A stretch of DNA of 58,093 bases from an uncultured virus (IMG/VR IMGVR_UViG_3300043773_000315) (taxonomy: Duplodnaviria; Heunggongvirae; Uroviricota; Caudoviricetes), in IMG/VR virus record IMGVR_UViG_3300043773_000315; one strand, 5' to 3'. Both the position numbers and the translations under genes were made by a program. A model generated the notes under the pieces. The model was not told the DNA's origin, searched no databases, and saw only the letters and a program-made list of their open reading frames with translations. Of the stretch, positions 19,647 to 49,661 are shown piece after piece (the stretch's first letter is position 1; every line of letters starts with the position of its first letter).

Positions 19647-19647
19647 A

Positions 19648-20751: not shown

Positions 20752-20757
20752 GGTATA

Positions 20758-21105
20758 TTAGCCTTTTTTTCCGTAATGCAGATAATCAATTTCAGCTTTT
20801 AATTTTTGTTTTGATTTCTTTAATAATCTACCAGATTGTTTTGCGTATTTGTCTTTTTCTTTGGAACTTTTAGCCTCTCTAGATTTTTTATCCGCTTCTC
20901 TAGATGCATGACCAGCAAGTTGCCATGAAATTTCATCAATCTGTTCTGCTTCCTCACTTACTTGACCAAAGTAGTTCTGAGCAATAACGGCCTTGCGTTC
21001 TTCCAACTTCTCTACAGCCTTTGTAGAAAGAGCGTTGGAAAAATGTGTACGCATTTCGTCTAGGTTATTTGCTAGAACACTATCTAATGCTTTGTTTACT
21101 GACAT
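20758..21105 (-). CDS. gp67-like prohead core protein with basic C-terminal extension
   Basis: FSNALSTKAVEKLEERKAVIAQNYF; downstream of the portal gene. Confidence 0.65.
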   Translation of the reverse strand: MSVNKALDSVLANNLDEMRTHFSNALSTKAVEKLEERKAVIAQNYFGQVSEEAEQIDEISWQLAGHASREADKKSREAKSSKEKDKYAKQSGRLLKKSKQKLKAEIDYLHYGKKG

Positions 21106-21131
21106 TTTTATCTCCTAAACGTTTAGTATTA

Positions 21132-21139
21132 TATTTATA
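21132..21139 (-). promoter_or_regulatory. T4-type late promoter
   Basis: TATAAATA upstream of the gp67-like gene. Confidence 0.75.
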
Positions 21140-31616: not shown

Positions 31617-32207
31617 ATGATTGAAGATTATGTAAAATTTGGTAAATTGTCCAATAAAGAACTATCTATAGTTCTAAAAGAAAGTGAAAAATATAAGAAA
31701 AATGCATTTGCTGCCTCACTTGGTGCTGTCAATAAAAAAAAGGAATTAATAAAGTACAAAGATGAAAACTTTAGAAAATCTAACATATATTTTCCAGCAC
31801 CGCAAGAAGCCCATAGAACTTTCAACATCATTCAGTCTCTTATAATCCAAGAATTTGCGGGCAAAAAACTAGACGTTGCCCACATATCAGAAGTACAGTT
31901 TGTTCACTATCCGTTGGGCGGCAAATTTGATTGGCATCAAGACATTTTGGGCATGAGACCTGGTGAAATAAAAACTCGAGGATTAACATTTTCGATGAAC
32001 TTGAGTGATCCAAATGAATATGATGGCGGAAACTTGACTCTAAAACTTACCGAAGATAAAACTATGAGTCTGGGTAGAGAAAAAGGCTCTTGGATTGTTT
32101 TCCCGTCTTTTATTAGACACAGAGTAGATGAAGTCACTAGAGGTTCAAGAGAGGCCATAGTTGTCTGGTCGCATCTGACTATGCCTGAAATACAATCAAT
32201 GAAATGA
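31617..32207 (+). CDS. 2OG-Fe(II) oxygenase (prolyl-hydroxylase/PKHD-like)
   Basis: Y..GGKFDWHQD (HxD), LSDPNEYDGGNL, VFPSFIRHRV..VTRGSR; GGAG SD. Confidence 0.9.
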   Translation: MIEDYVKFGKLSNKELSIVLKESEKYKKNAFAASLGAVNKKKELIKYKDENFRKSNIYFPAPQEAHRTFNIIQSLIIQEFAGKKLDVAHISEVQFVHYPLGGKFDWHQDILGMRPGEIKTRGLTFSMNLSDPNEYDGGNLTLKLTEDKTMSLGREKGSWIVFPSFIRHRVDEVTRGSREAIVVWSHLTMPEIQSMK

Positions 32208-32884
32208 AACTTACTCTAGGAACAACGTATTACAATTGTCCAGATATACTTGAAAAGTTTATTGATCATCATATAAACTATTTTGATGAGATTATTGTAA
32301 TAGATGACGGATCATCTATTCCAGCAGAAAAATATCTTAAATCGAAAGATAAGATAAGACTGTATCGTGTTCCTATAGACTACGGCTTCAATAGTCATGG
32401 ATGTAGAAATCTCATTATGAGGGAAACTTCGACTGACTGGACAATTTTATTTGATGTTGATAGATTGATTGTTGATCCTAAGTTTGCCGTCGATACTATC
32501 AAAATGAAAAAACTTAGAGAAAACACACTTTATCTTTTTGAAATGTTTTCAGATTACGATAATCCAGAAACAGTTCATCCATCTGTCAATGAGTTTCTTG
32601 TACATCGTAATCACTTTTGGAAAGCGGGAGGTTACGATGAAGAACTTATTGGAATTAGAACAGGAGACAGAGAGTATAGAAAACAACTGAGTCATTTTGG
32701 TAAAGAACAAATACTCCATGGACTTCACGCAAAGTTTATAAGAGGTTCAAGTATGTCATTGAATATTACATCACCAAATGATAAAAACATAAATAAAAAA
32801 CTTATAAATCTTGTTAAAAAAAGAATAATAAAACCTGATCAAAATAAAAAAACTTTAACTTTTGAGTGGTATAAAGTTTTTTAA
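32204..32884 (+). CDS. GT2/GT7-like glycosyltransferase
   Basis: IIVIDDGS, GCRNLIM, FDVD (DxD), GGYDEE..G..GD. Confidence 0.85.
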   Translation: MKLTLGTTYYNCPDILEKFIDHHINYFDEIIVIDDGSSIPAEKYLKSKDKIRLYRVPIDYGFNSHGCRNLIMRETSTDWTILFDVDRLIVDPKFAVDTIKMKKLRENTLYLFEMFSDYDNPETVHPSVNEFLVHRNHFWKAGGYDEELIGIRTGDREYRKQLSHFGKEQILHGLHAKFIRGSSMSLNITSPNDKNINKKLINLVKKRIIKPDQNKKTLTFEWYKVF

Positions 32885-32929
32885 CGTTTGATAATAATTA
32901 TGTTCTGATCTATTATGCTTGAACTACTC

Positions 32930-33910
32930 TCATCTTTTGTAATCTTTCAGGTTAAAGTTGGTACCCTTCATCTTATTGATATGCACCAAGTCGTTATTTT
33001 TCCACACTAGAACTTCGTTGTCTTCATAGAGAAAATCACAGTCTTTGCAGAATGGCACTTCATCAAATCTCTTTTCGGTATGCATCTGACGAAGCCATCT
33101 ATATCTCTCACCATTCCATACGCTTTCAATAGATTGATTATCAATCGATCCTAAGTCTGCTTCACCATCTCTACCTAAAGTCTGACAGCAAGGAGCAATG
33201 GACAACTTAGTACCATTTGTTCCGCCTGCTCTTACGGTTAAATCTGGTGAGAAAGGTCGACCACAAGTCCTCTTCTGACCCTTTCGTTTATAATCTGGAT
33301 CATATACACCTGACCAGTTATGCATTTTCCATATCTCAGCATATGTGCTTGCCGGCTCAATAAAGTTCTTGCGATACTGCTCTACTTCATAATCAATATT
33401 GTCATTGTCTAGAATTAAATGATAAGAAGCAACGATTGTTTCCGCTTCTGTGCCTTCAACATATCTTTGCATCTCGGTTGCATTTTTGAGAAGCAAATCG
33501 AATGCATCTCTGGCCATCCACTCTTTATACTTTTCACGATTGTATCCAATGATAGAGAACCGAGCAAGAGCAAGACCAGCATCTACGCACTTCTTCATAA
33601 AGTTGCCGCGCAGATTATATCCATTAGTATAGATAAATGGCTTTGCATTATACTTGCGAACGATCCGAATATAATCTGGAAGATTGGCGTTTAGTGTGGG
33701 TTCGCCTGATCCTTCCAGATTGACAACATTGAGTCCGTATTCAGCACACTCGGCCACGACTCGCTCAAAGTCAACAAGAGACATTTTCTTGAGCCAATCT
33801 TTACCGCGACCAGATGTTTGCGGACACATGGCACAAGTATAGTTACAGCCGCCGTTAACTTCTATTACTGCTCTGTCTATAGATAAAGGTATTGAATAGG
33901 GGATGCTCAT
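32930..33910 (-). CDS. Radical SAM enzyme with SPASM/Twitch domain
   Basis: CNYTCAMC, GSGEPTL, TNG; C-terminal CGRPF...PCC...CKDC. Confidence 0.92.
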   Translation of the reverse strand: MSIPYSIPLSIDRAVIEVNGGCNYTCAMCPQTSGRGKDWLKKMSLVDFERVVAECAEYGLNVVNLEGSGEPTLNANLPDYIRIVRKYNAKPFIYTNGYNLRGNFMKKCVDAGLALARFSIIGYNREKYKEWMARDAFDLLLKNATEMQRYVEGTEAETIVASYHLILDNDNIDYEVEQYRKNFIEPASTYAEIWKMHNWSGVYDPDYKRKGQKRTCGRPFSPDLTVRAGGTNGTKLSIAPCCQTLGRDGEADLGSIDNQSIESVWNGERYRWLRQMHTEKRFDEVPFCKDCDFLYEDNEVLVWKNNDLVHINKMKGTNFNLKDYKR

Positions 33911-34652
33911 CTGCTTTCATCTTTTCACTGAGATATTTTTGATGCTTTAATCTAATCAAATCTACTTTTGCTTTTGCATCTACTAGCAAAGTGTCTACTC
34001 TATTATCTATGAACTCGTCAGCATTAGACAAGAGAATAGCCTGCGGCACAAGAATATTGTTCAGCCATTTTCGGTCACAGAATACAAACAGCGGTTTCCA
34101 CATAAACTTAAACAACTGGTGTGCAAGACCATCGTAGCCAATACCGAACTCACATTTATTGATAATTTCTATTGCTTCTTTTACAGGTGTTCTATACGTT
34201 ATTTCTTCTACAACATAATCGGAAAGTTTTGCCCTGATATCATTCCATCTTTTATTGACTGGATCTTTCCAATGACCAGGAAAAGAAATGTTGAAGTCTG
34301 TTGTCCATATCGCTACGTGCTTCTTCTTAGTTTGATCTGGCATGTCTGTATACCAGAGTCCGTGCATAGGATTAAACTCATCTAATTGATTATAGAAACG
34401 AAAATTAGGATTTGCGTTGAATTGATGACTTACTGATACCTGAGGAAGTTTACTCATAATGCTGTAAATGTAATCACACCGCTCAACTATCGTTTCTGGA
34501 TCAAGCGGTGAGAACATATGTTCTTTAGAGTGATTCCAATGAAACTCTATATGAACTGGCGTCTCATACTTGATTGCTGATCCGTGTGCATATCCTAGAC
34601 CAGTAACAAAGTCGCCATATCCAACACCTGTTCCCCACTTAACTTCAAACAT
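33855..34652 (-). CDS. Putative GT-B (GT9-like) glycosyltransferase
   Basis: GVGYGD N-terminal motif; INKCEFGIGYDGLAHQL...KP resembles GT9 nucleotide-binding motif. Confidence 0.55.
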   Translation of the reverse strand: MFEVKWGTGVGYGDFVTGLGYAHGSAIKYETPVHIEFHWNHSKEHMFSPLDPETIVERCDYIYSIMSKLPQVSVSHQFNANPNFRFYNQLDEFNPMHGLWYTDMPDQTKKKHVAIWTTDFNISFPGHWKDPVNKRWNDIRAKLSDYVVEEITYRTPVKEAIEIINKCEFGIGYDGLAHQLFKFMWKPLFVFCDRKWLNNILVPQAILLSNADEFIDNRVDTLLVDAKAKVDLIRLKHQKYLSEKMKADEHPLFNTFIYRQSSNRS

Positions 34653-35329
34653 TACTGGCTGAGAATATCATCATGATCATAATCGCCGCCAGTAATTTCA
34701 TCAATCATGTTTTTCCACATTTCTTTTTGATCAATTATCCAAGCAACAGAGACCCTAACTCTTTTTGTTTTTGCCATATGCCAATATACACGCTCAGGTT
34801 CTTTTCTTTGATCTGGATAGTATCCAACTTTTACGTTCCAACCAGGTCTGTCAAAAATTGTTTTAACAGATTTTGTTTTATAATCCCAATAACTAAAACC
34901 TCCATCACCATCTAGACTATAAGATACTAAAAGATTATATCCAGGAGCATTTCCATTATGATGCCATCCAATAAAGCCATCTTCAGGATAGTACATCGAT
35001 AACGCTTCTCTCTCAGTGCCTAAAGTTCTACCCAATCTTTTTGTTGTTTTTTTTATTTCGTTTGCTGTAACACTGTTAGGATCAATGCCCTGTAAGATTG
35101 TTTCTATGGTGCATCCTCTACATGCTCTAGGATATCTATAGTCTGAAAGTTTAAGTTTGAATGCTTTGAGTAGATATTCTTCTGATGTTGGATGACAATC
35201 TGTAATTAAATTATCGACCCTATCTCGACATTTATTCATCAGACTCTTAATATCATCGCTGTAAAACAACTCAGTTGTACGTGAGAGTAGTTTTTCCAGG
35301 CGAGGGTTTTTCAATTCGATGCTTTTCAT
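34652..35329 (-). CDS. Putative double-stranded beta-helix (2OG-Fe(II)-like) oxygenase
   Basis: YYPEDGFIGWHHN...WHMA...RVSVAW: HxN...H...R pattern. Confidence 0.6.
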   Translation of the reverse strand: MKSIELKNPRLEKLLSRTTELFYSDDIKSLMNKCRDRVDNLITDCHPTSEEYLLKAFKLKLSDYRYPRACRGCTIETILQGIDPNSVTANEIKKTTKRLGRTLGTEREALSMYYPEDGFIGWHHNGNAPGYNLLVSYSLDGDGGFSYWDYKTKSVKTIFDRPGWNVKVGYYPDQRKEPERVYWHMAKTKRVRVSVAWIIDQKEMWKNMIDEITGGDYDHDDILSQ

Positions 35330-36101
35330 CGTTTATGCCTTTCTCAATAATCTTCCATGCATTTCCCATTTTTCTCCAAGTACCTTTGTCGATCTGTGTA
35401 ATAACTGGAGATCCATCTAAATCTTCACGTAAATCTTGTGATGTTGTATTCCATCTTCTAGATAAGATATCGATCTTCAGTTTGTCAAATCGTCTATACT
35501 CTTCAAATAATCCGCATGTCATTCTCCACAGTGTAAACATATCAAACTGCTGCCATTCTTGATAGTGAGTGGCTGAATGTGGCCATGGAGTTGTTATCTG
35601 CTTAACATAATCGTCAAACCAAGTCTGCATGAAATCTATATTCAAATCTGTTTTGTGATATCCCCACATAGAACCATGATACTTTGGAATATGTTTTCTA
35701 GCTTTATCTATGTAAGTCCATTTGATACTGCCTACGGTATAAAGAAGATTACTTCCACAAAACAGATCACAATTATCCAAAAAATTAAATATCTTGGAAA
35801 CATCTCTATGACGAATTAATGAGTCGCAATCATTATATACTGTTCTCTTGTATGGCGTTCTTGCCATTGCCCACATCTTAGTTCTAACGTGAATTGGAAT
35901 TTCAACAATCACATTATCAAAGATTTTGCAACGATCATCACAAAACTTCTCATGAGTAAACAATGTCACATGTGTTTTAGGCGAAAAGCTTTTTAATGAT
36001 TCACAAGATAATAACGCAAGTTCGTAGTATAGTCTATTGTTTGACGCTACATAAATAAATCCATTATCGCTTAATACATTATTGTTATAGTAAATTTTCA
36101 T
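35271..36101 (-). CDS. GT8-like nucleotide-sugar transferase
   Basis: GFIYVAS, SLK, K.WAM.RTPYKRTVYNDCD (DxD), DMFTLWR, RWN. Confidence 0.75.
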   Translation of the reverse strand: MKIYYNNNVLSDNGFIYVASNNRLYYELALLSCESLKSFSPKTHVTLFTHEKFCDDRCKIFDNVIVEIPIHVRTKMWAMARTPYKRTVYNDCDSLIRHRDVSKIFNFLDNCDLFCGSNLLYTVGSIKWTYIDKARKHIPKYHGSMWGYHKTDLNIDFMQTWFDDYVKQITTPWPHSATHYQEWQQFDMFTLWRMTCGLFEEYRRFDKLKIDILSRRWNTTSQDLREDLDGSPVITQIDKGTWRKMGNAWKIIEKGINDEKHRIEKPSPGKTTLTYN

Positions 36102-36613
36102 GCATTATTATCTGTTGAACTAGTTGCATCTTCAAACTCTTTGTCTTCAATTTCATCAAAAATTGTTGTTATGGTTTTGCCAGTTCTTTGCATGTAAGAC
36201 ATGAATACTGTGCTTGCCGCAATTTGCAAAAGAGTTTCGTTTGGCGCTCTTCTGATAGAAGCTTTTTCTTCGTCTGTTAACTCATCAACAAAAGGAAGAT
36301 TGAAGTAATATAGTTTCTGGTCAAACAAGCGACGAAGCAACTCATTTTCAATTGAGGCTCTTTTCTTTTTTTCAAGTCTTTCTGCTTCTTGAATCTTCAT
36401 AGTTTCAATATTGTTTCTTCTTCGACGCATGGCCTCTACATCATGTTCTGCAACTATTCTATCCCAAAACTCATTTATCCCAGATTGTCTATTTTCTGGA
36501 ACTTTAAATTCTGCTACAGTTTCTTTGCCGTTTTCATCTTCTAGAATCATTTTTACCCGAGTTTTTTCTAAATCAATAAACTCTGGGTTCTTAATAATTG
36601 GATACGTAGTCAT
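36098..36613 (-). CDS. Hypothetical protein, possible fibre assembly chaperone (start revised to MTTYP)
   Basis: Beta N-terminus plus coiled coil, resembling the layout of tail-fibre assembly proteins. Confidence 0.45.
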   Translation of the reverse strand: MTTYPIIKNPEFIDLEKTRVKMILEDENGKETVAEFKVPENRQSGINEFWDRIVAEHDVEAMRRRRNNIETMKIQEAERLEKKKRASIENELLRRLFDQKLYYFNLPFVDELTDEEKASIRRAPNETLLQIAASTVFMSYMQRTGKTITTIFDEIEDKEFEDATSSTDNNA

Positions 36614-36640
36614 TTTTTTACCCGTCAATAGTTGTTTCTG

Positions 36641-37162
36641 TTATATTTTTACAATCTCATATTTATTGCCTGTAAATACGACATCAATAGGTATCTTATT
36701 TACGTTGTACTTTTTTATTTTTTCTAACCACCAATCTTTAGACTGTATGGTTACATGGACGTTTTCGCCAGTTGTGAAAAAAGTTCCACCAGTTATCATA
36801 CAAATAGTGAAGAACACAAATTTTTTAGCCTTACTGAATATGTTTGCAAATACAAGTTCAAGTTTTTTTTCCGGAACGTGTTCTAAAACCTCTACACATA
36901 TTACACCATCAAATTCTTTATTTGGCAATATGTTATAAGGTTCATAATATGGATCGTAACACTCTACTTCTATACCCCAATATATATCTAATTTTTGTTT
37001 GCTATATTGTATACCTTTACCGCTGCCGTAATCCAAAATAGTTTTGCTTCTAGTTCGTTTAATGATATTGTAAATCAAGTTTCTAAATTCATATGTAGAA
37101 TGACCATCAAACTTCCAAGGTAGTTTATGAAATCTAACATATTCCGCATCAAAGTCTATCAT
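36641..37162 (-). CDS. Class I SAM-dependent methyltransferase (start revised to MIDFDAE)
   Basis: ILDYGSGKG, YDP, FDGVICVEVLEHVP, H.T.....WW. Confidence 0.88.
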   Translation of the reverse strand: MIDFDAEYVRFHKLPWKFDGHSTYEFRNLIYNIIKRTRSKTILDYGSGKGIQYSKQKLDIYWGIEVECYDPYYEPYNILPNKEFDGVICVEVLEHVPEKKLELVFANIFSKAKKFVFFTICMITGGTFFTTGENVHVTIQSKDWWLEKIKKYNVNKIPIDVVFTGNKYEIVKI

Positions 37163-37163
37163 T

Positions 37164-37877
37164 TTATTTTTTCCTGATAGACACGATATACTCAAGGGTC
37201 GAAACATCTTTATTTTTTAGTGTTCGTTTTAGTCCAGAGTTATCGTGATTATATATTTTGATATCACGGAATTCATTTTTCATCGATTCAATGACGTTAG
37301 ACAATTCTATTAATTTATCTTCTCCATATCTATGACCAATATCTTCAATAAAATATAATCCGTTATTTTTTAGATATTTCCAAGCACATTTGAATGTTTC
37401 AATCTGAGACTTTGGGTTATGATCTCCGTCATCTCTTATGACATCAAATTTTTTTCCATAAAATTGTAACCAGTTATCTTCTCTTGTACTATCTAAGTTG
37501 TATAGTCTGGCTTTTCTAAAAAGAGAATGTTTCCGTTTTATATTATCTCGTTGTTGTATTATAGAAGGATTCCAATCATTGTCAATACCATAAATAGTTG
37601 CATTCTCGAAATATTTTTGCCAGGCATAGATACCATATCCTTCTTTTATGCCTATTTCTAGAAAGTTTAATTTGTCTTTTTTTATGCTTTTGAAATATTG
37701 AGTGTATACTCTATCATATCCTCTCCATCCGGCCCTATCAGTTTCGTTAGGATTTCTTTCTGGAAAATTCTGTCTTCTAGTGTATTCATTATGTACAGGA
37801 TTGTAATTAAGATATTCTTTCAATTCAAAATCAGAAAGAGGCAAAGTATCAAAGTGTTTTGTGTTATTAAATATCAT
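37164..37877 (-). CDS. SAM-dependent O-methyltransferase-like protein (sugar O-methyltransferase type)
   Basis: FLEIGI..G, W..YF.NA.IYGID, DS, FDVIRDDGDH, L..NGLYFIED. Confidence 0.8.
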   Translation of the reverse strand: MIFNNTKHFDTLPLSDFELKEYLNYNPVHNEYTRRQNFPERNPNETDRAGWRGYDRVYTQYFKSIKKDKLNFLEIGIKEGYGIYAWQKYFENATIYGIDNDWNPSIIQQRDNIKRKHSLFRKARLYNLDSTREDNWLQFYGKKFDVIRDDGDHNPKSQIETFKCAWKYLKNNGLYFIEDIGHRYGEDKLIELSNVIESMKNEFRDIKIYNHDNSGLKRTLKNKDVSTLEYIVSIRKK

Positions 37878-38551
37878 ATTTTTATAAACTTATGGAATCT
37901 ATCAGAATCAAATAGTTCTGGATTTGATGTGCAATAATGTTCTATTGTGCTTCCATATTTTTCAGACATAACTTGATCTGCCGCAGCTTTGTACTTTTTA
38001 TGTTTTTGATTAACATGCATATTAATCATATTGTTTTCTACGGCACATTTTTCTAGAAATGCATATGGGCCGCAACCTACCATTGTTGTCTTCATATACT
38101 CTACGATAATTTTTGCATACCAAGGAAATATAACATAGGCTCCAGTTGACGCTTTATCATAGAAAATTATTCCATAATTCATATCAAGCCAAAGATTTTC
38201 TGGATGAATTAGATATGAATCGTGCTCTAATACTAAAACAGGTAAATTTTTTTTAATACATATTTTCCAAATCATATAATGACTATAAAAACACGATTTT
38301 TCGGTGTCTGTTATTTCAGCTTGAATATTCAAATTTGTATATTTTATCTGTGTCGAATATGGATGCCATTTTATGTGATCTAGATTTGGTAAATCTTTAG
38401 GAACAATCGCATTAAACTTCTTAACATCTATACCATAATTTTCCCAACTTTTCATACAATAGTTGGCATAATACTCAGATGCTTCATTGTCTTTTATAAC
38501 AATCATATAAGAGTCTATAAATTTAGGAAACGTCAAGCAATTCTTCTCCAT
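37874..38551 (-). CDS. GT25-like glycosyltransferase
   Basis: FNAI, EKSCFYSHY.IW......PVLVLEHD, GAYVI.P. Confidence 0.8.
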   Translation of the reverse strand: MEKNCLTFPKFIDSYMIVIKDNEASEYYANYCMKSWENYGIDVKKFNAIVPKDLPNLDHIKWHPYSTQIKYTNLNIQAEITDTEKSCFYSHYMIWKICIKKNLPVLVLEHDSYLIHPENLWLDMNYGIIFYDKASTGAYVIFPWYAKIIVEYMKTTMVGCGPYAFLEKCAVENNMINMHVNQKHKKYKAAADQVMSEKYGSTIEHYCTSNPELFDSDRFHKFIKI

Positions 38552-39957
38552 AAAGTTCTGGTACTGATTGTGCTTGTGGTAGGCGCAACTCTAGTTCCTT
38601 CATATGAAACAGTACCGACATACGTTATTGGGCCAGAATAGTTGCTACCATCAAACGAAGTAAACGCCGTTGTAAAACCTATTGGACCTAGATATGTTGT
38701 ATTGAAATTAATAGCGTCTACGTTAGTAAAAGATATTGCATTTTCGTTAGTATAAGATATTGCATTTTCGTTAATGTAATCTGCCGGACCCAAATAATTC
38801 GCTGGACCCAAATAAGTTGCTTGATAATTACCAAAATAAGGATTAGTAAATGGAAAAGTGTATGTTCTATCACCTGAGTATGGAATAGAACCGCCTTGAG
38901 GAGTTGGAAAAGGTCCGACTTGTCCAAAAGGAAAAGGACCGCCGGCATAATTACCGCCTTCATAGTCGGCAACATAATTATTTTGATATGATAGATTGAA
39001 ACTTGTTGCATTAGAATCAGTATAAGTCGTTACATCAGCATTATTATAAGTACTGGGTCCAAGATACGTAGTTGGTCCAAGATATGAGGCTGGTCCGGAA
39101 TAAGTTGTAACATATGTAGCTACATCATCGCCTATATAATTTCTAGTACCAACATATGTTGAGGTATAGGCAATTGCATCCTCATTAACATAAGAGTCTG
39201 TTCCAGTAAAGTTAGACGTTGTAATATCTTCTCTAGTATCAACAACAGTGCCTACATTTGTCCATGTACCTGTTGCAGGAGCAGATGCTTGTAGAGCATA
39301 TGTGCCAATGCCTGTTGCAACGATGCGCTCTTCAATCGTTTTTATAAGTGCATTGATTTCAGCGGTAGAAAAACTTTGTATATTACCGGAAGATAGTTTG
39401 ACAGGATCTCTGTTGGTAATACTTGCGCCAGATGTTGTCCTTTGCCATAACTTGTAATCTGTTACTGTAACGGTAAGATTTGTCTTAGTATCAAGAAGTG
39501 TGCCGCGAGATACCCATGTGGCACCGTCTGCTGGAGCAGAAGTTGCTAGGTAATATGCATTTGTTCCGCCAGTACTGGCCACCATTCTTGCAATAATTTC
39601 ATCGGCCAGCTGTTCTTTTGTCGTAAGATTTTCTTGAAGAACAGTTTGTGTAGGACTTGTTGTATCTAGTCCAACATACATTGGCGGATCACTAGTTGCG
39701 CCTAGTGTGGCTGTTGCAACTTGTGAAAGTGTATAGGTGTTTGTTACTGTTGTTGTATTTGTTCCGCCCGCAGTATCGACTAGTGCAGTATCCGCAAATG
39801 TACCAATAGATGCTGTAGTGCCTACTGTAATTGTACCTGTATACGTGCCTGCCGCCATGACACGAAGAACGCGCTCGGCCAGATCGTCCAGTTGTGCGTT
39901 GGAAAACTTTTGTATCGTATTTGTTGATGAGTCAAAATAAACTAAATTATGCGCCAT
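38533..39957 (-). CDS. Virion fibre/needle-like protein with Tyr/Phe-spaced repeats
   Basis: Thr/Ala-rich, internally duplicated N-terminal region; YLGPxx and YxNExAIx repeats; follows the fibre genes. Confidence 0.7.
   Translation of the reverse strand: MAHNLVYFDSSTNTIQKFSNAQLDDLAERVLRVMAAGTYTGTITVGTTASIGTFADTALVDTAGGTNTTTVTNTYTLSQVATATLGATSDPPMYVGLDTTSPTQTVLQENLTTKEQLADEIIARMVASTGGTNAYYLATSAPADGATWVSRGTLLDTKTNLTVTVTDYKLWQRTTSGASITNRDPVKLSSGNIQSFSTAEINALIKTIEERIVATGIGTYALQASAPATGTWTNVGTVVDTREDITTSNFTGTDSYVNEDAIAYTSTYVGTRNYIGDDVATYVTTYSGPASYLGPTTYLGPSTYNNADVTTYTDSNATSFNLSYQNNYVADYEGGNYAGGPFPFGQVGPFPTPQGGSIPYSGDRTYTFPFTNPYFGNYQATYLGPANYLGPADYINENAISYTNENAISFTNVDAINFNTTYLGPIGFTTAFTSFDGSNYSGPITYVGTVSYEGTRVAPTTSTISTRTLWRRIA
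38731..38778. repeat. 24-bp tandem repeat encoding YxNENAIS
   Basis: agatattgcattttcgttagtata / agatattgcattttcgttaatgta. Confidence 0.85.
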
Positions 39958-39987: not shown

Positions 39988-42444
39988 TTAGTTGCCCCAC
40001 ACGACTGTTCCTGTAGAGTCCTTAATCAATAGCTGTCTGTTTGAACTATCGTAAAGACCAGCAGACTTAACCATGCTACTAGTGTTAAGACCGCCTGTAA
40101 TCCACATACCTGTAGAATTTACTCTTGCTCTTTGTGTTGCACCTGTAAAGATCGATAAGTTTGCATCAGCAGGTACAACTGCATTTAGATTTTGTTCTGT
40201 TACACTAAATCCAAAAGTTGTACTCCACAGAGCGATATGATTCATCACATTGGTTGATGCGGAAGAAAGTCTAGAACCAAACGAGATTCCACCTGCGGTA
40301 AAGTCGAGATTGCCTGAGTATGTGGCTCTTGTCGTTACGTTTGCTAGTGCGTTATTAGCAGAATCTCTAGCTGTGTTAGCCTGTTCAAAAGAAGATTCAA
40401 TTGTTGGCTTAACATTCATATCGTTGAGAAGTAAAGCCGAAGAAACGTTAGCAACACCCTTCACATCAAGAATATAACCAGGACTTGTTGTGCCTACACC
40501 AACTTTGCCGTCAGATTGAATAGTTAAAGCTTCAACCGCAGATGTCAAGAAGTGATATGCTATAACGCTACCAAACTTATTCTCAAAGTAAGTATCGCCT
40601 ACACTGTTATCATAACGAATGCTAAATCCTTCGTTCGTGATTTCGCCTGCTTCGCCAGTGAAACGTAGAGTCGGATCGTATCCGTTGTCAGCCGTAATCC
40701 AAAGTTCGGAATTTCCAGATGTATTATAGACCTGTAGTTTAGCACCAACGTTGGGTGTAGCAATACCAATACCAACATTACCTGTTGGAAAATTTAGATT
40801 ACCGTTGAATGATATTCCAGATGTATTAGGTAAAGCATTTGTTGCTGTACTATTAGCATCGTTTGCAGTATTAAATGCTTGACCAATTGTTACAATGGCA
40901 TTTGCACCACCAAGAATCAGATTGCTTGTCTTTATATCGGCATTCAGCACCGCCAATGTCATATTGTTTGACAAAGCACCAATGTGATTGTTTATAGGTT
41001 CTTTATCATATCCTTGAAACAGATAATATTCTTTATCTGTATGTTCACGATAAAGTCCAGTATGAACATTTGAACCTGTCGCATTAACATAGTTTGCGAT
41101 GAATCCAATGTCAACAATATCGGAAGTGTAATTATTTGCCGCAAGATATAGTAGTGGGTCATCTACTTCTAATCTTGTTGCATCAATAGAAAATGTATTG
41201 CCGGAAAGAGTTAGATTGCCAACAATATCAAGATCACTTGTTATTGTTTGACTTGAAGCAGACAACTTGACATAAGTGAAATCTGAGTATGTATTTACAG
41301 CATTTGATGATAAGAAAGCAGCATTGGCGTGAGCGTAAGCGATATTTGCCTGACCAAACGATGCATTTGCATGAGCATACGCAATATTAGCTTGATTAAA
41401 TGCTGGACTGAAATCCGTTACTGCATTGTTAGCAGCCAAAAAAGCCGCATTGGCATGTGTTCTGGCAGCATTGGCTTGTGTAAATGCACCTGTTACATCA
41501 CTTGCAATACCGTAATATGATCCATGCTGACCATCAAGTAAGTCTGCATCTAGTCCTGTTCCAGTGCCGTGGTTACCTGCGTGCCATACAGTATTTCCAT
41601 CATACGTAAGCGGACCTGTTCCTGCACGACCAAGAGTTTTTGTATCATCAATACCAAAATTGATATACGCAATAGATGCGTTTTGTTGACCTTTGATACG
41701 TAAAGAGTTTGCAACGTTAAAATCGCCAATCCAAACGTCATCACCAATTTTAAAGTTTTCACCATTTCCATTATTTGTTGAGATGATTTTATCTGCTACA
41801 AGATTTTGACTTGCAGTAAGTGTGCCATCAAACCATGAACCCGACACATTTGGAAGTGCTGCATTTGCTTTATCAAATGCTTGACCCGCTGTTGCTCTGG
41901 CAACTGTATCTGTGGCTGATGCTGCCGCCAAAAGGTCTGTGCCTACACCTGCTGATGTTGATGCTAGATTGATAAATGCGCCTCTTGCATCTCCGCCAGA
42001 CACAAAAAATCTTAGTTGATTTTGATAGATGTCGATGTTTACGGGACCAGCAAGAAGAGAGTTTGTGACTGCATTAGCAAGTCTTATTTCACCGCCTTCG
42101 TCACCACTAGATGCTGTTACCGAAAGAAGACCAGAAATTGCCACATCATCTGTAAGACGGACTGTTAGTTTATCGTTGATTGCATCACCAACAATATCAA
42201 TATTTTTTCCAGCAGCAATAGTAAAAATATCGCCAGGTGTATCAGCAACGACCAGTGTGTTATTGGCATTTACTGTGCCGAAATAGTTTGGTTCATTTCC
42301 GCTAATTGATGCAATTGTTCCATTGGCTGCTTTGTAGTAAAGTTTGCCATCAGCATAGTTGATGGCCAACTCGCCGTTAGCTAAGTCTACAGGAACAGAT
42401 GAAGGTGTTGCTGATTTTTTAAGTGCAATTACTGTGTTGGCCAT
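39988..42444 (-). CDS. Tail fibre-like structural protein
   Basis: N-terminal LANGELAINYADGKLYYK, VWHAGN..G.GLDADLLDG, GNVGIG/GKVGVGTTSP repeats, A/N heptads. Confidence 0.85.
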   Translation of the reverse strand: MANTVIALKKSATPSSVPVDLANGELAINYADGKLYYKAANGTIASISGNEPNYFGTVNANNTLVVADTPGDIFTIAAGKNIDIVGDAINDKLTVRLTDDVAISGLLSVTASSGDEGGEIRLANAVTNSLLAGPVNIDIYQNQLRFFVSGGDARGAFINLASTSAGVGTDLLAAASATDTVARATAGQAFDKANAALPNVSGSWFDGTLTASQNLVADKIISTNNGNGENFKIGDDVWIGDFNVANSLRIKGQQNASIAYINFGIDDTKTLGRAGTGPLTYDGNTVWHAGNHGTGTGLDADLLDGQHGSYYGIASDVTGAFTQANAARTHANAAFLAANNAVTDFSPAFNQANIAYAHANASFGQANIAYAHANAAFLSSNAVNTYSDFTYVKLSASSQTITSDLDIVGNLTLSGNTFSIDATRLEVDDPLLYLAANNYTSDIVDIGFIANYVNATGSNVHTGLYREHTDKEYYLFQGYDKEPINNHIGALSNNMTLAVLNADIKTSNLILGGANAIVTIGQAFNTANDANSTATNALPNTSGISFNGNLNFPTGNVGIGIATPNVGAKLQVYNTSGNSELWITADNGYDPTLRFTGEAGEITNEGFSIRYDNSVGDTYFENKFGSVIAYHFLTSAVEALTIQSDGKVGVGTTSPGYILDVKGVANVSSALLLNDMNVKPTIESSFEQANTARDSANNALANVTTRATYSGNLDFTAGGISFGSRLSSASTNVMNHIALWSTTFGFSVTEQNLNAVVPADANLSIFTGATQRARVNSTGMWITGGLNTSSMVKSAGLYDSSNRQLLIKDSTGTVVWGN

Positions 42445-42885: not shown

Positions 42886-44493
42886 TCAGAAAGTTCCTCC
42901 ATCTAGCATTCCGAACTGAGGAACACCAGTATCAGACGCTTGTAACACTTGACCTTCTGTGCCAGCAGAGGTTACTTTGAGTGCGTTGCTTCCGTCACCA
43001 TACAGAATACCATTTGTTGTGAATGTTGTTTTTCCTGTACCGCCGTAAGCGACTGCAATGTTGCTTCCCTGCCATGTACCAGTAGAGATTGTGCCGACGC
43101 CTGTGATTCCTGTGTATGAACCAGAAATTCTTCCTGTTGGTACTGTACCTGTTGTTAAGAAGTCTGCATTAGCAGCCTGAGCAGAAGCAGAGTTTGCTTG
43201 AGCATATGCGCCGTTTGCATGTGTGAAAGCTAGGTTTGCAATCGCATGAGCAGAGTTAGCAAATGCGTATGATGCGTTTGCAATTGCCATTCCTGCGTTC
43301 GCGGCCGCGTGAGCAGTATTAGCATGAACTCTTGCAGTATTGGCCTGATTGAATGCATCGATAGACTGAATGTATGCAGGATATGCATAACTTGAGTACA
43401 CAGTATTTGCAAATGCATATGCAGCGTTAGCATGTAAAAATGCTGCATTGGCTACAATGAATGCACCATTGCCGATTGCCATTCCAGCATTAGCAGAAGC
43501 ATGAGCAGCGTTAGCGTGATTGAATGCAGCGCCAATCGTTAGAATTGCGTTGGCACCACCAAGAATTAGATTACTTGTTTTGATATCGGCATTCAATACT
43601 GCCAATGTCATATTATTTGACATTGCACCGATATGATTGTTTATTGGCTCAGCATCATAACCTTGGAATAGATAGTATTCTTTGTTTTCGTGTTCACGAT
43701 ACAAACCAGTGTGAACATTTGATCCTGTGGCATTTACATAGTTGCCGATGAAACCGATATCTACGATGTCTGATACGTAGTTATTGCCAGCCAGATAGAT
43801 AAGAGGATCTGAAACTTTAAGTGTTTCGCCGTCGATTACATAAGTGTTTCCGGAAACGGTTAGTCCGCCTACGATGGAAAGATTACCGGTGATTGTACCA
43901 CCAGCAATGGCCAACTTTGTGTTTGCGATAAGGGCAGCAGCGTTTGCTTGTTCAAAGGCAGCGTTGCTAGTAGCAAGAGCGGCGTTAGCGGATGCTTGAC
44001 CAGCAGAGGCGGATGCAAGAGCAGCGTTAGCAGTTGTATAAGCGGCGTTAGCATGAACAAATGCCAAGTTAGCAATAGAGTGTGCGGAATTAGAGAATGC
44101 ATAAGATGCATTGGCCGTTGATTGACCAGCAGAAGCGGAAGCTAGAGCGGCGTTGGCAACATCAAAGGAAGCGTTGGCGGTTGATTGACCGGCGTTAGCA
44201 GAGGCAAAAGCAGCGTTAGCATGATCTCTAGCGGTATTTGCTTGACCAAATGCACCAACAATTGCGGCACCTGAGTTGGCGGTATTATAAGCGGCGTTGG
44301 CTTGAGCAAATGCGGCGGTAATTGTGTCTAGATAATACTTACCGCCGATAGCAATGACACCAGTTCCGTCTGGTGTACCGATGAACAATGTATTGGAAGA
44401 GTAAGAGTACGCCTGTTCGCCAGAAACAAGAGAGCCATTTGGAGGAGTCGAAGTTGTCGTACTTCTCTTTATCTGAATTACTGTATTTGACAT
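42886..44493 (-). CDS. Tail fibre-like structural protein
   Basis: IQIKRS...L..GE.AYS N-terminus, long AxxxANx heptads, GTWQG..IAVAYGGTG, ends LDGGTF. Confidence 0.85.
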   Translation of the reverse strand: MSNTVIQIKRSTTTSTPPNGSLVSGEQAYSYSSNTLFIGTPDGTGVIAIGGKYYLDTITAAFAQANAAYNTANSGAAIVGAFGQANTARDHANAAFASANAGQSTANASFDVANAALASASAGQSTANASYAFSNSAHSIANLAFVHANAAYTTANAALASASAGQASANAALATSNAAFEQANAAALIANTKLAIAGGTITGNLSIVGGLTVSGNTYVIDGETLKVSDPLIYLAGNNYVSDIVDIGFIGNYVNATGSNVHTGLYREHENKEYYLFQGYDAEPINNHIGAMSNNMTLAVLNADIKTSNLILGGANAILTIGAAFNHANAAHASANAGMAIGNGAFIVANAAFLHANAAYAFANTVYSSYAYPAYIQSIDAFNQANTARVHANTAHAAANAGMAIANASYAFANSAHAIANLAFTHANGAYAQANSASAQAANADFLTTGTVPTGRISGSYTGITGVGTISTGTWQGSNIAVAYGGTGKTTFTTNGILYGDGSNALKVTSAGTEGQVLQASDTGVPQFGMLDGGTF

Positions 44494-45071: not shown

Positions 45072-46355
45072 TTAGTTACCCCACACAACAGTTCCAGTAG
45101 AATCTTTAATCAATAGCTGTCTATCAGAACTATCATAAAGAGCGGAAGACTTTAAAGATGTTGCAACTAGAGACCCGCTAGATGGATTATACGACAGAGC
45201 CGTAGCAACATTAGCATTAGCAAGTGTTCCTGTTGTTTTATCTGTAAATATAATGTATCTTGTTGCAGATAGCGCATCTGTTTGTATAACAGTTACACCA
45301 GTATTTGCTCTTGTATATGCATCATTTGCTTGATTTCTTGCTGTGTTGGCTTGAACAAAAGAAGCCGTTACTGTTGGAACAACATTCATTGCTTGATCGG
45401 AACGTGTATTCCATACAAGCAATGAACCGGAAATATTGGCTGAACCGTTAGCGTCTAGAACTTGTCTTGGATTTGATGTATTGAAACCATGACGACCTGC
45501 GCCGTCTTGCTTATAACCAAACGAACTGTCTGTCCATGGTCCAATTACAAGATTTGCACCATCATCAGAAGTTCCTTTACTAAAGATAATAGATAAATCT
45601 CTATCTAGCATCAAGTCATTCCAAGCTCCAACGCTTGTATTAGAGTTGAACTGTATGAACTGTGAACCGCCCATAATTTCGACTTGAGGGAAAACGTTAG
45701 CTACGCCGATCCAACTGTTAACATGTAGTCTAATGCCCTGAGTGTCGCCTTCGCCTATGGACAAATTGCCTGTTGGAAATTGCATGTTTCCGGCAAAAGC
45801 GATTCCTGAAGTGTTTGCTAGTCCTGTATTGGCTTTTGTAAATGAAGCATTGGCATGATCTCTAGCAGTATTTGCTTGAATAAATGCCTGAATTGAAGAG
45901 GTTGAAGTTGCGGCATTTGCTGCGGAATATGCTGCATTAGCTTGATCTCTAGCTGTATTGGCCTGAGCGAATGCACTTGTTGTTGATGTTCCGCTGTTAG
46001 CCGCTAAGAAAGCTGCATTAGCATGATCTCTAGCTGTGTTAGCCTGTAATAGTCCTGCGTTGGCAGATGCATGTGCTGTATTAGCATGATCTCTAGCTGT
46101 ATTAGCCTGTAGCATTCCGGCATTAGCAGATGCGTGAGCAGCATTGGCATGGACTCTAGCAGTATTAGCCTGAATTATTCCAGCATTAGCTAACAATGTT
46201 GCACTATTAGCAGCATCTCTAGCTGTATTGGCTAAAGTTGGACCAAGAGCAAGAAGTTGTTGTCCATCTATATCATTGACAAAATGAATTACTTGATTTG
46301 TGAGATTGCGCCACTCATCAAATGTGTTGTTTAGTGTGACATTTGCTAGTGCCAT
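45072..46355 (-). CDS. Fibre-like structural protein with Ala/Asn heptad repeats
   Basis: NTFDEWR..TN N-terminus; QANTARDHANAA repeats; C-terminus shared with the 818 aa fibre. Confidence 0.8.
   Translation of the reverse strand: MALANVTLNNTFDEWRNLTNQVIHFVNDIDGQQLLALGPTLANTARDAANSATLLANAGIIQANTARVHANAAHASANAGMLQANTARDHANTAHASANAGLLQANTARDHANAAFLAANSGTSTTSAFAQANTARDQANAAYSAANAATSTSSIQAFIQANTARDHANASFTKANTGLANTSGIAFAGNMQFPTGNLSIGEGDTQGIRLHVNSWIGVANVFPQVEIMGGSQFIQFNSNTSVGAWNDLMLDRDLSIIFSKGTSDDGANLVIGPWTDSSFGYKQDGAGRHGFNTSNPRQVLDANGSANISGSLLVWNTRSDQAMNVVPTVTASFVQANTARNQANDAYTRANTGVTVIQTDALSATRYIIFTDKTTGTLANANVATALSYNPSSGSLVATSLKSSALYDSSDRQLLIKDSTGTVVWGN
46015..46190. repeat. About 3 copies of a 63-bp repeat (21 aa, ANAGxxQANTARxHANxAHAS)
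   Basis: Visible in both DNA and protein. Confidence 0.8.
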
Positions 46356-46356
46356 T

Positions 46357-46599
46357 TTACTTTGCCAATCCTCTTAGGAGTTCTTTTATTTCCTGCATAT
46401 CTGTTTTGACTGATTCCAAATCAGATAGCTTTTCTTTTATACTATTTATCTCAGCACTAACATCGCGCACATTGTTCATCATGGCCTTACGACTTCTATA
46501 TTCATTTGCTATGTTTCTGTCAGACAATAGAATTGCTCCATTATGCATGTCTTTTCTAAGTTCTTCGTGTTCTTTTACTTTAGCCAAATTTTCCATCAA
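46357..46599 (-). CDS. Small coiled-coil protein
   Basis: KVKEHEELRKD..NGAIL; ends EIKELLRGL. Confidence 0.75.
   Translation of the reverse strand: MMENLAKVKEHEELRKDMHNGAILLSDRNIANEYRSRKAMMNNVRDVSAEINSIKEKLSDLESVKTDMQEIKELLRGLAK
46443..46450 (-). promoter_or_regulatory. Late promoter variant
   Basis: GATAAATA upstream of the 427 aa fibre gene. Confidence 0.45.
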
Positions 46600-49500
46600 T
46601 ATGCATCCTCTGGAAGGGCTGTTGCACGAACGTCTAGAACATAAGGAATAGAATTTGCCACAGTGCTTCTAGAAGACAGAACTATCTTGATAGCAAACTG
46701 ATTGAAAGTTTTGTATGTTGTCGTATCTGTTGAATATGTAATATTATTGGATGTTAGAGATGGTCTATACTCATATTCAACAGGTTGTCTGTTTACCGAG
46801 AACGTGTACTGACTTGTCTTTTGAGTCATGCGTACCCAATCGCGGTCTTCAATCTTTTGCGGATCAAGAGCGTTACGTACCTTATAGTATACGTTAACAT
46901 TTGATCCTGGCGGTTTAACGGCTGTCAAGAAAATTCTCAAATCGCCCGCATCAAATCCATCAAGCAGAGTGACTGTCTTTGAGATGTATCTAGCTAAAGC
47001 TGGACCACCAGATGAACCAGTTTCCGTTGATACGCTAACATTTGCTCCAATTCCGTTTTCACCACCAACTGTAACGACAACATCATCAACGTATCCTACA
47101 CCAGGACTATCGATGTAGATAGAAGATATTTTTCTTGTTTCAGGATCAACTATAGCCCAACCATTAGCACCATATCCTACATTACTTGTGATAGTAAGAG
47201 GTGCAGTATCATAGTATTCTTCACCAGGACTTGTAATTGTAAATCTGTCGGCAGTCAATCCTGTGTCGTTTATCAAGTTCTCAATAGTTATCATGTTTTG
47301 TCTATTGTGATAGATTACAGGAGAAACGTCCGGATTCTTGGTAGAAAGATCAATACGCACAGTCATGGATTTATTTTCCAGTTGCGGATTAAATATAATC
47401 TTTCTTTCTTCCAGATCAAATCTCTTATCAGGATTAAAGTTGGTATAAGTTGTGTCTAGTACCTTAGTTGTATTTGATGTACCTTTGAAATAATAACTAA
47501 GTTTAGTGTTATTAATTTCAATTGCATCTGATCTTAAATGGAGAGCATCATAATAAGTATTGGCCTTCAAATCATCAAATGCATTATAAGCAACGTTTGA
47601 TGAAATTTCTTTATAAAGCGCAACCTTATCCTCATCAAATATCGCTGTACCTGATGTTGATGTAAACTGTGCTTTATTCAAAACAAACATCAAGTCTTCG
47701 TTTGCTAATGGCGTCCACGTGCCTGCCGCAGAACCATTCATCTGAGACTTAAGGAATGTGCCAAGATGTGGCTGTTTAGATATTTTTCTATCAGTTCCAA
47801 TAACAGTTCCACCCAATTCTGCTGAATAATAGTCATAACCAAAATCGTCAGTAACAGCAACAATAGCATATTCATATCCTGCGTTTAGATAAACAGGACT
47901 TGGGAATGTAAATCTAGTTGCAGTCAAAGAATTAGATGTATTTGGAAAATTAGATACATTTATGTCTTCAATATCAACCGTAGTCGTAGCTCCAGGAATA
48001 ATTACATCGTTTCTTGGTATTCCATTTTGAACTGGTCTAATTTGGACTTCTATAGGAAGTAACTCGCCCTTATTCTTGAAGAACAAGTCAACAGAAGATA
48101 TAAAGAGTCCGTCGGGAGCGTCTCTTCCTGAAACAAAGAACGTTTGTGCAATCGGATCATTCCTTCCTTGGCAACCTGCGTTTTGATCTGGTTGTCCTGG
48201 ATACTGATCGCTACCTGTGCTTAATCCATATGAACCAGTAGATGGACAACATGAACTACAACTTCTCGTCCACTCGCCTCTTCCTAGATATTGAGTAACA
48301 TATTTGGCTGTACATTTTCTAGAATTACTCTTTGATACTTGAGGCGGCGTCTTAGACGGAGTTTTAGGCGGCGTCTTAGTCGGAGTTTTAGCCGGCGTCT
48401 TTGTAACTGGCAATGGCGAAGTGTCTGGCGGTACTTTAGTTGGTGTCCGAGTTGGCTGCGACACTGGACCAACACCCACAGTTCTTGTTGGAGTATTCGT
48501 AGGATCTGGCGTATTTGTTCTAGTAGGCGTAATAGGATTCGAACTAGTTTTAGTTGGCGTAGGAGTTATTGGTGTTACCGGTAAAGTTTTTGTTTGTGTT
48601 GGCGTAAAACTTCTTGTTGGAGTAGGTGAAGGTACTGGCACATCTGGATCATCTTTACGTATAAGAATTTGTGCAATAGATTGATCTAGGCCGTCAGCCA
48701 CAAAACGATATTCTGCTCTTGTTGTATCTCTACCAACACCTAGATTTGGATCGTTTAGTCCAAAAACAGGATTGTCTATAATTCTGAATATCTTATCGCC
48801 AGTCTTAAATTTAGAATCTGGATTTTTGTTAGGATCAGGAATATGAAGAACGCCCGATATCATTCCTCTTGATGTTGTGTAAGAAGAAGGATGATTATTT
48901 GATGCATACCATGATCTGTAATCACCAATTGTGTAGATAAGTTGATCATCATTAGGATTTATATTTAAGGCTGGATTAACATACGCAATTCTAGACAAAC
49001 AGTTATAACTTACAATTTCGGCAGATTGTCCTGCGTTAGTTCCATTTAGAATTGTTATTGTATTACCTAGATAATATTCATCTGTTGCTGCATTAGCGTC
49101 AGATGACATGACAATTTCCGTGTTTGTGGTATTTGCTTGTACAAGTCCAGAATAGTGACTGTAGTTATAAAGTGAAGTTGTATATCCTCCTGGTATATTT
49201 ACAATAACTGTATCATTTTCCGCAAAAACGCTTGGAGAAGTAAATTCAGAAACATAAAAAATAGAATTTCCAGAATCAAGGTCTCTTTCCACATGCAAAA
49301 TTCTTGCAGCAGCCGAACCTATATTTAAAACTTTTTGAGAGCCACTTCTAAGATCGGATACAGTATTACTAGATTTAACCTCAATTATGTTTGGTCTCTG
49401 AACGAATCTGTTAACACCGACTCCATCAAAGTAAAACCAAATTTCTCTATTTGGACGCAATCTATATCCAAGAAAGTCAATTGCTATCGATCTCATATAA

Positions 49501-49661
49501 GGAATGATAGAAACGCCCGTCAAAATGTTTCCTGCAGTTTTATCAACGGTCGTTGTGTTCGTTACAGTTTGAGCGTTGTCCTGTAACGTTTGATAAGAAG
49601 TTGGCGGCGCACTTCTAGGAATTTTTGCTGACGCTGAGGTTACGATGCTGCTTGTTGCCAT
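46596..49661 (-). CDS. Large structural protein, C-terminal half of a DUF4815/VrlC-like family
   Basis: IIPYMRS..I.F....LRPN, DPIAQTFFV, FISSVDLFF, F.FPSPVYL, EDLMF, ARYISK.VTL, FAIKIVL. Confidence 0.8.
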   Translation of the reverse strand: MATSSIVTSASAKIPRSAPPTSYQTLQDNAQTVTNTTTVDKTAGNILTGVSIIPYMRSIAIDFLGYRLRPNREIWFYFDGVGVNRFVQRPNIIEVKSSNTVSDLRSGSQKVLNIGSAAARILHVERDLDSGNSIFYVSEFTSPSVFAENDTVIVNIPGGYTTSLYNYSHYSGLVQANTTNTEIVMSSDANAATDEYYLGNTITILNGTNAGQSAEIVSYNCLSRIAYVNPALNINPNDDQLIYTIGDYRSWYASNNHPSSYTTSRGMISGVLHIPDPNKNPDSKFKTGDKIFRIIDNPVFGLNDPNLGVGRDTTRAEYRFVADGLDQSIAQILIRKDDPDVPVPSPTPTRSFTPTQTKTLPVTPITPTPTKTSSNPITPTRTNTPDPTNTPTRTVGVGPVSQPTRTPTKVPPDTSPLPVTKTPAKTPTKTPPKTPSKTPPQVSKSNSRKCTAKYVTQYLGRGEWTRSCSSCCPSTGSYGLSTGSDQYPGQPDQNAGCQGRNDPIAQTFFVSGRDAPDGLFISSVDLFFKNKGELLPIEVQIRPVQNGIPRNDVIIPGATTTVDIEDINVSNFPNTSNSLTATRFTFPSPVYLNAGYEYAIVAVTDDFGYDYYSAELGGTVIGTDRKISKQPHLGTFLKSQMNGSAAGTWTPLANEDLMFVLNKAQFTSTSGTAIFDEDKVALYKEISSNVAYNAFDDLKANTYYDALHLRSDAIEINNTKLSYYFKGTSNTTKVLDTTYTNFNPDKRFDLEERKIIFNPQLENKSMTVRIDLSTKNPDVSPVIYHNRQNMITIENLINDTGLTADRFTITSPGEEYYDTAPLTITSNVGYGANGWAIVDPETRKISSIYIDSPGVGYVDDVVVTVGGENGIGANVSVSTETGSSGGPALARYISKTVTLLDGFDAGDLRIFLTAVKPPGSNVNVYYKVRNALDPQKIEDRDWVRMTQKTSQYTFSVNRQPVEYEYRPSLTSNNITYSTDTTTYKTFNQFAIKIVLSSRSTVANSIPYVLDVRATALPEDAY
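48343..48403. repeat. About 2.5 copies of a 24-bp repeat encoding KTPx units
   Basis: ggcggcgtcttagacggagtttta / ggcggcgtcttagtcggagtttta / gccggcgtctttg. Confidence 0.85.

Follow-up and report, generated by a model that had tools for sequence, protein, structure and literature searches.

In the window analysed here, a 58,093-nucleotide stretch of DNA from an uncultured virus, a putative tail fibre protein carries a long insert that, judging from its sequence, most probably runs outward for about 90 residues, turns, and pairs back along itself. The genome is of the T4-like myophage type, with major head, portal, terminase, sheath, neck and baseplate wedge genes all recognised. The fibre gene is placed between fibre-like genes and a block of modifying-enzyme genes, and its neighbourhood includes gp6/gp8 baseplate, gp13–gp18 and terminase genes detected by family library matches; this position in the tail module suggests that the product is a tail-associated fibre. 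Elsewhere in the window, an Alt-like ADP-ribosyltransferase gene (21135–22112) lies inside a region (19143–22112, minus strand) that also has unannotated open reading frames and sits between the portal and head protease genes. The fibre gene and its parts are:

38533..39957, minus strand: fibre gene, an open reading frame of 474 amino acids within the structural module
39712..39957, minus strand: base module 1 (residues 1–82), a helix plus a short beta-hairpin
39430..39684, minus strand: base module 2 (residues 92–176), a helix, a G.W strand, a tight hairpin and a return strand ending in LW
39211..39411, minus strand: outgoing half of base module 3 (residues ~183–249), ending in root strand E232-250
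38926..39210, minus strand: arm 1 (residues 250–344)
39169-39192, 39115-39138, 39025-39048 and 39001-39024, minus strand: arm 1 eight-mers
39085-39102, 39067-39084 and 39049-39066, minus strand: arm 1 GP six-mers, the arm also having 4-mer spacers
38881..38925, minus strand: apex loop with PTPQG (residues 345–359)
38602..38880, minus strand: arm 2 (residues 360–452)
38797-38814, 38779-38796, 38677-38694 and 38623-38640, minus strand: arm 2 GP six-mers
38755-38778, 38731-38754 and 38707-38730, minus strand: arm 2 eight-mers
38533..38601, minus strand: return strand of module 3 (residues 453–474, E452-472), which closes the base

Profile alignment and confident models establish that the base consists of three homologous modules in a single chain. 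Comparisons by hhalign, which used 175 aligned base regions, gave 98.2% and 97.9% for module 1 against modules 2 and 3, 99.5% for module 2 (strands E147-158 and E163-175) against module 3, and 89.2% for the return strand of module 3 against that of module 2. In the AlphaFold model the base has a pLDDT of about 90 (81–97 per 10-residue block in module 1, 82–98 in the module 3 return strand) and three helices, and residues 252–447 fall below 50 with no secondary structure assigned. The shorter relative P0082 likewise has a rooted insert, of which residues 252–337 are below 50. The insert (residues 250–452) is Tyr/Phe-phased and set between the two root strands of the third module, and because these strands flank it, it sits at the turn of the module 3 hairpin with its ends side by side. 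From the modelled strand limits, W232 would face W470 and F250 would face Y452, the corresponding pairs in P0082 being W228/W362 and Y246/Y344; since these limits set aromatic residues opposite each other, the aromatics would be the rungs of the structure.

Spacings between successive Tyr/Phe residues were as originally described, reading 8,4,6,6,6,8,8,4,4,4 inbound from Y274 and 4,4,4,6,6,8,8,8,4,6 outbound from F370, with YF at 374–375 taken as one start; the coordinates given for the apex segment (38881–38943, the apex loop plus the last rung) were also right. In a root-anchored hairpin alignment, all seven GP six-mers pair with all seven NxD/N eight-mers, in agreement with the predicted facing of 6-mers and 8-mers. 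One of these pairs, YVNEDAIA with YSGPIT, had not been listed earlier; with it the pairing extends to the root, so the claim that the match loosens toward the outer ends was dropped. The hairpin scored 16.5 and an identity mirror (6 with 6, 8 with 8) 5.75. Shuffles scoring as well as the hairpin numbered 0 of 2000 for the whole insert, 0 of 2000 within arms and 3 of 2000 when like-module runs were kept together. The 6/8 scoring rule was devised after seeing this protein, and its score here is a description; because the rule was written on the window protein, the relatives are the real test of the code.

At the DNA level, similarity is highest between two eight-mers (92%) whose partners make up one of the two closest six-mer pairs (83%); the second-ranking eight-mer pair (71%) is set against the other. 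The DNA likeness among six-mers mirrored that of their partners in three of five genes (p 0.02, 0.04 and 0.02; 0.12 and 0.75 in the others), in a test of duplication history that tandem neighbours inflate.

The mirror order is not a DNA palindrome. Folding of the fibre-gene mRNA was no better than that of shuffles (z −0.30), no arm-long inverted repeat was found in the gene, and among four short inverted repeats the single pair joining the two arms (22 nt, 73%) lies outside the module register. Moreover, the sequence is found in more than one assembly: an identical protein is translated from an IMG/VR contig, a contig from run X5 (a run that is not flagged as a possible source) spans 38587–39039 with 0 differences, and one from run X7 spans 38861–39589 with 43 substitutions and 0 gaps. 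At least half of the window's words were present in 13 of the 20 runs listed, three of these being possible sources; the runs with these words are lake or freshwater metagenomes, with no RNA datasets among those listed. Contigs from four runs, a source that drops rare variants, showed no indels within the insert. DNA-level causes are thus unlikely. That the mirror is a by-product of an inverted repeat, an RNA stem or an assembly error, with no meaning for the protein, is an exceedingly improbable explanation: recent direct repeats in both arms can confuse assemblers, but partner modules are of unequal length (18 vs 24 nt), other runs contain the same sequence, and relatives show different yet balanced counts.

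Relatives comprised 48 proteins in one search and, at E up to 0.001, 236 representatives in another, 150 of which were listed. The insert was located in 204 of 223 stored sequences, where it ranges from 31 to 1887 residues; in phage C48C1 it reaches about 3070. Under the fixed rule, 14 of 15 close relatives had no more than 6 of 200 within-arm shuffles scoring as well (P0013 had 21 of 200), and the complement outscored the identity mirror in all 15, the score of P0012 coming from spacers and not from 6/8 pairs. By eye, facing runs have corresponding lengths in P0003 (4/2 vs 2/4), P0004 (6/2 vs 2/6) and P0005 (6/4 vs 4/6), and P0009 has seven eight-mers against seven six-mers and P0014 eight six-mers against eight eight-mers on the apex side. 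The nearest relative shares 234 of 243 base residues and is 51 residues longer, with balanced arms. P0011–P0013 have 5–8 GP modules (P0012: 3) against 2–3 recognisable eight-mers.

For repeat numbers, 14 proteins were split at the PTPQG-like tip, yielding 13 independent contrasts on a tree built from the base alone; the near-identical P0002 was dropped, and P0015 and P0016 are without the tip motif. Arm lengths covary strongly (r 0.94), as do inbound six-mers with outbound eight-mers (r 0.95); inbound eight-mers and outbound six-mers gave r 0.62, or 0.86 with a looser six-mer rule picked post hoc. Same-type pairs gave −0.09 and −0.35, and same-type or same-arm pairs overall lay between these values. 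A cruder initial module count had shown no correlation between inbound eight-mers and outbound six-mers (rho 0.03, n 13). The proposal that length changes by matched duplications on both arms is supported by this covariation of opposite-arm counts after tree correction, and the homologue comparison proposed for it, including the 14 of 15 close relatives that fit the rule, shows compensated repeat numbers.

Among more distant relatives, 3 of 20 pass the fixed rule, and most have no eight-mer. Seven of the 170 inserts outside the close group have at least three eight-mers and fewer than 90 units; four of these pass, with at most 4/100 shuffles doing as well, and the failures include two near-copies of each other. 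P0037 forms 15 pairs (0 of 100 shuffles) and P0082 five of five (2 of 100), the latter keeping the 6/8 code with Gly-Gly and no Pro. In pure 4-mer members a Gly/non-Gly mirror is modest and confounded by a period of three, offset +4 scoring no lower than +1 (odds ratios 2.67 and 2.48). One locus, L012 (2833–11595), encodes two tandem paralogues of 1129 and 1786 amino acids made of nearly pure 4-residue Y/F-x-G-x repeats. Two further inserts were inspected by eye: in P0205 (L003 1850–3517, P0006 cluster) a block in each arm resembles the opposite arm of relatives, as if one self-complementary segment had been copied to both arms, and in P0035 about ten F-x-G-x-x-P-S-N eight-mers precede about ten Y-D-G-x-x-P-A-N eight-mers, an arrangement that might be a third code of 8 with 8.

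Searching GenBank phages by tblastn with P0043 as query returned phage C48C1 (OQ984149.1; Kyanoviridae by its record) as the sole match. Its homologue (L001 14983–25026), annotated as hypothetical, has 3347 amino acids and an Arg-rich mirror code (Y:Y, R:G, R:F; Arg/Ser vs Phe/Gly), with a mirror score of 1049 vs 781–861 in 8 relearned shuffles. Several globular domains are inserted in its return arm, and about 70 residues are exactly duplicated, possibly through an artefact of assembly.

A residue-level matrix learnt from the relatives was also applied. The window protein was matched by 78 of 1000 shuffles at the first setting and by 72, 9, 96 and 109 of 1000 at four further gap settings, a weak separation in four of the five; the training set outscored all 20 relearned shuffles in three of the five. 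This result and the low model confidence would suit an insert built as a beta-solenoid, an amyloid-like stack or a local repeat array in which the mirror order is incidental. Such an architecture is nevertheless highly improbable, as local stacking predicts no end-to-end coupling, whereas covariation is seen between cross-type counts and is absent between same-type ones; furthermore, the mixed 4/6/8 spacings are unfit for a constant solenoid rung, and the root strands hold the insert ends side by side. We consider it similarly far-fetched that the insert serves as a spacer loop, disordered and glycosylated, whose balanced arms merely centre the tip. The low pLDDT, the lack of assigned secondary structure, a Thr/Ser/Gly-rich composition and adjoining glycosyltransferase genes would fit such a loop, but it needs neither module complementarity nor a Tyr plus Phe content of about 19% with fixed phasing. 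The antiparallel 6/8 hairpin of the original prediction is supported by the shuffles, the relatives, the covariation and the rooted strands, and arm pairing is unseen in the models: AlphaFold, proposed earlier as a check, gave no confident solenoid and no arm pairing past the root strands.

As regards the number of chains, three modules per chain, of which the last alone bears an insert, point to a single-chain pseudo-trimer with one two-stranded ribbon, which leaves the earlier suggestion that the hairpin is perhaps trimeric unsupported and less likely. A three-copy complex prediction of residues 181–474 scored 0.01, which is not evidence for or against a trimer, and covariation cannot separate pairing within a chain from pairing between chains. 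It is worth weighing a fold-back insert in which three (or two) chains are bundled as a six-stranded needle like that of gp37, or in which arms pair between chains. T4 gp37 is trimeric, and its needle is inserted in the collar domain and carries at its far end a loop subdomain that binds receptors (PMC6957217); regular aromatic rungs could make a core for such a bundle, and a lone long two-stranded ribbon may be floppy. Against this, each chain already has three homologous modules and one insert, the insert has no His for metal layers (the sole His of the protein is residue 3), and bulges on both arms would fit an open ribbon better than a tight barrel. We thus regard bundled chains as unlikely, although less so than a solenoid or a disordered loop, and favour one ribbon per chain.

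Under the favoured single-chain ribbon, three helix-plus-hairpin modules would pack as a compact base with pseudo-threefold symmetry, and the hairpin of the third would be extended into a long antiparallel two-armed ribbon. Facing aromatics would form the rungs; between them a 4-mer would face a 4-mer and a Y-x-G-P/G-x-x six-mer would face a Y/F-x-N/G-x-D/N-x-x-x eight-mer, whose two extra residues may form an Asx-turn bulge above the Gly-Pro or Gly-Gly kink. A part for the NxD bulge in binding calcium would be speculative. Each module type can occupy either arm. Duplication on one arm would leave an unpaired module, so that selection would keep only alleles with a matching change, which might arise in two steps or through one out-of-register double crossover. 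With about 85 rungs at 0.33 nm each, the ribbon would reach roughly 28 nm, and the chain, capping a trimeric fibre, would present the apex loop to the host surface.

There is perhaps an even chance that the apex loop is a receptor-binding site. PTPQG-like tips occur in 23 of 200 non-redundant inserts and are confined to a close subfamily; in 46 of 200 the central 25 residues are Pro-free, and the inserts of P0082 and of the second L012 paralogue (1516 residues) are wholly without Pro. The idea that the bulge compensates for the missing NH of proline was rejected as a general rule, given the Gly-Gly code of P0082. The genes adjoining the fibre gene are:

39988..42444, minus strand: 818-aa fibre-like protein encoded upstream, its C-terminus a conserved ...VVWG motif
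37874-38551, minus strand: GT25 glycosyltransferase (Pfam, above cut-off), directly downstream of the fibre gene
37164-37877 and 36641-37207, minus strand: two methyltransferases (Pfam, above cut-off), downstream of the GT25 gene
36098..36613, minus strand: conserved 171-aa neighbour, possibly a fibre chaperone (a lead only)
35271..36101, minus strand: conserved GT-A-like glycosyltransferase with an invariant DxD
34652..35329, minus strand: conserved protein with an invariant H-x-N...H...R motif

The VVWG motif closes the gene preceding the homologue in 7 of the 8 loci inspected (L004 and L008 not included) and is absent from that position in L012 and phage C48C1; the upstream 818-aa protein is a candidate docking partner of the base. 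This protein and that at 45072–46355 (minus strand), both fibre-like, share a nearly identical 20-residue C-terminal motif, and these two and the product of 42886–44493 have Ala/Asn-rich coiled-coil-like repeats, some with regularly spaced His.

Downstream, a trio encoding a 150–190-aa protein, a GT-A-like protein and an H-x-N...H...R protein was present in all six loci with downstream DNA and in C48C1. The nearest named Atlas cluster of the 171-aa neighbour is Phage_tail_APC at 0.81, under the tool's bar, and its comparison with T4 gp38 was not significant. For the GT-A-like protein the best profile match was glycogenin (E 0.038), and its L012 homologue matched Nucleotid_trans at E 0.0019, under the cut-off. 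The H-x-N...H...R protein, without a family library match, we take from its motif to be 2OG-Fe(II) oxygenase-like. Modification of the fibre protein is plausible from this conserved glycosyltransferase-like and oxygenase-like gene pair and is not tied to tip prolines. The trio also lies beside L012, whose second paralogue insert has no Pro, and tip hydroxyproline is therefore not its general purpose. Glycogenin modifies tyrosine, which makes Tyr an alternative, if speculative, target. Our tentative view is that the co-inherited chaperone-like, glycosyltransferase-like and oxygenase-like genes fold or decorate the fibre protein.

The wider block of modifying enzymes within the structural module (31617–38551: a 2OG-Fe(II) oxygenase, GT2, a radical SAM protein with SPASM, two methyltransferases and GT25) is largely kept in L003, L005, L006, L007 and L011, the GT25 gene itself being found in the first four. 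A 1021-aa tail protein in the window (46596–49661, minus strand) has a long Pro/Thr-rich mucin-like linker (residues ~340–445), which could instead be what the nearby glycosyltransferases and oxygenases act on.

Searches of known families placed the fibre protein in none of those covered. Pfam and PHROG gave no family for it, PHROG none for 30 of 30 relatives, and Pfam no relevant family for 50 members at E up to 10. A PDB sequence search had no match for the protein at E up to 10 or for a 50-row profile at E up to 5, and tblastn of GenBank phages with the window protein likewise gave none. Foldseek, at E up to 0.001, returned nothing from PDB or BFVD, an absence that does not prove a new fold, and Atlas returned unnamed viral clusters only. 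No paper on the family or on C48C1 was found in a literature search that was mostly without subscription papers, so a description in print is possible.

By fold, the base resembled MABP/beta-prism-like domains (Mp2Ba1, 8b6v; MACPF 2qp2; MVB12B, 3tow; perforin-2 P2, 6sb1), the best matches of the two models reaching Z 7.1 (rmsd 2.8, 98 aligned) and Z 6.8 (rmsd 3.8, 111 aligned), below the tool's mark of Z 8 and at 3–14% identity. This likeness fits a three-hairpin pseudo-symmetric core, as modelled; it may reflect a common arrangement and shows no function. With the T4 gp10 C-terminal domain (PF21939), gp11 and the collar domain (PF07484) the base shares short motifs, a G.W strand and a chain end of the form W/Y-x-R-x-A. 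One base module gave a weak structural match to gp11 that spans its inserted finger (Z 2.3 with 47 residues aligned at rmsd 3.6, and Z 2.5 with 44 at rmsd 3.4), and in the gp10-type comparison the last 11 columns alone reached 45%. The comparisons with gp10, gp11 and gp37 were not significant and do not establish homology, profile probabilities being 0.1–1.8% vs up to 3.3% for gp10 control regions; the family profile gave 0.1% against gp37, with a single-sequence template of low sensitivity.

Needles on small base domains have been described in other phage fibres. Class TC6 fibres carry a needle on a gp10-like domain (PMC12143355), and the T4 gp37 needle (D10-D11) and lambda Stf tips are out-and-back antiparallel insertions in a small base domain, as predicted here (PMC6957217, PMC7291167). 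The C-terminus of the fibre protein, through root strands E232-250 and E452-472, returns to the base as it does in the gp37 needle. However, the needle of the gp37 homotrimer has six strands and seven irons bound by His, and the window insert has no His; His pairs of the iron-binding gp37 type are absent, H-x-H occurring in 1 of 200 non-redundant inserts. Unlike gp37, the fibre protein has a three-module base in a single chain, modular arms with a complementarity code, and a very variable insert length. A second point of comparison is phage S16 gp38, a single chain with three helices capping the trimeric fibre gp37 (PMC6851490). On this analogy, drawn from the published description, we lean slightly toward the single chain capping a trimeric fibre as a monomer. 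S16 gp38 continues, as described there, as a beta-helix and a polyglycine sandwich, whereas the window protein is a predicted hairpin ribbon with no Gly run longer than two.

If true, this architecture would be a metal-free route to a thin fibre of any length, widespread in aquatic T4-like phages, and would supply a rule for designing long two-stranded beta ribbons, as well as an example that the prediction tools used here do not fold. Known repeat proteins grow by units packing on their sequence neighbours. In the fibre insert the partner that each unit seems to require lies hundreds of residues off, so that evolution would act at two sites together, in the manner of an RNA helix, and the 6/8 code makes such paired evolution countable. 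A bolder reading, to which we give somewhat less than an even chance, is a class of repeat protein resembling an RNA stem: one two-stranded ribbon of interchangeable paired modules (6/8, 4/4, R/S with F/G), extended from a few to hundreds of nm by compensated duplications, borne as a monomer on a trimeric fibre and served by dedicated decorating enzymes.
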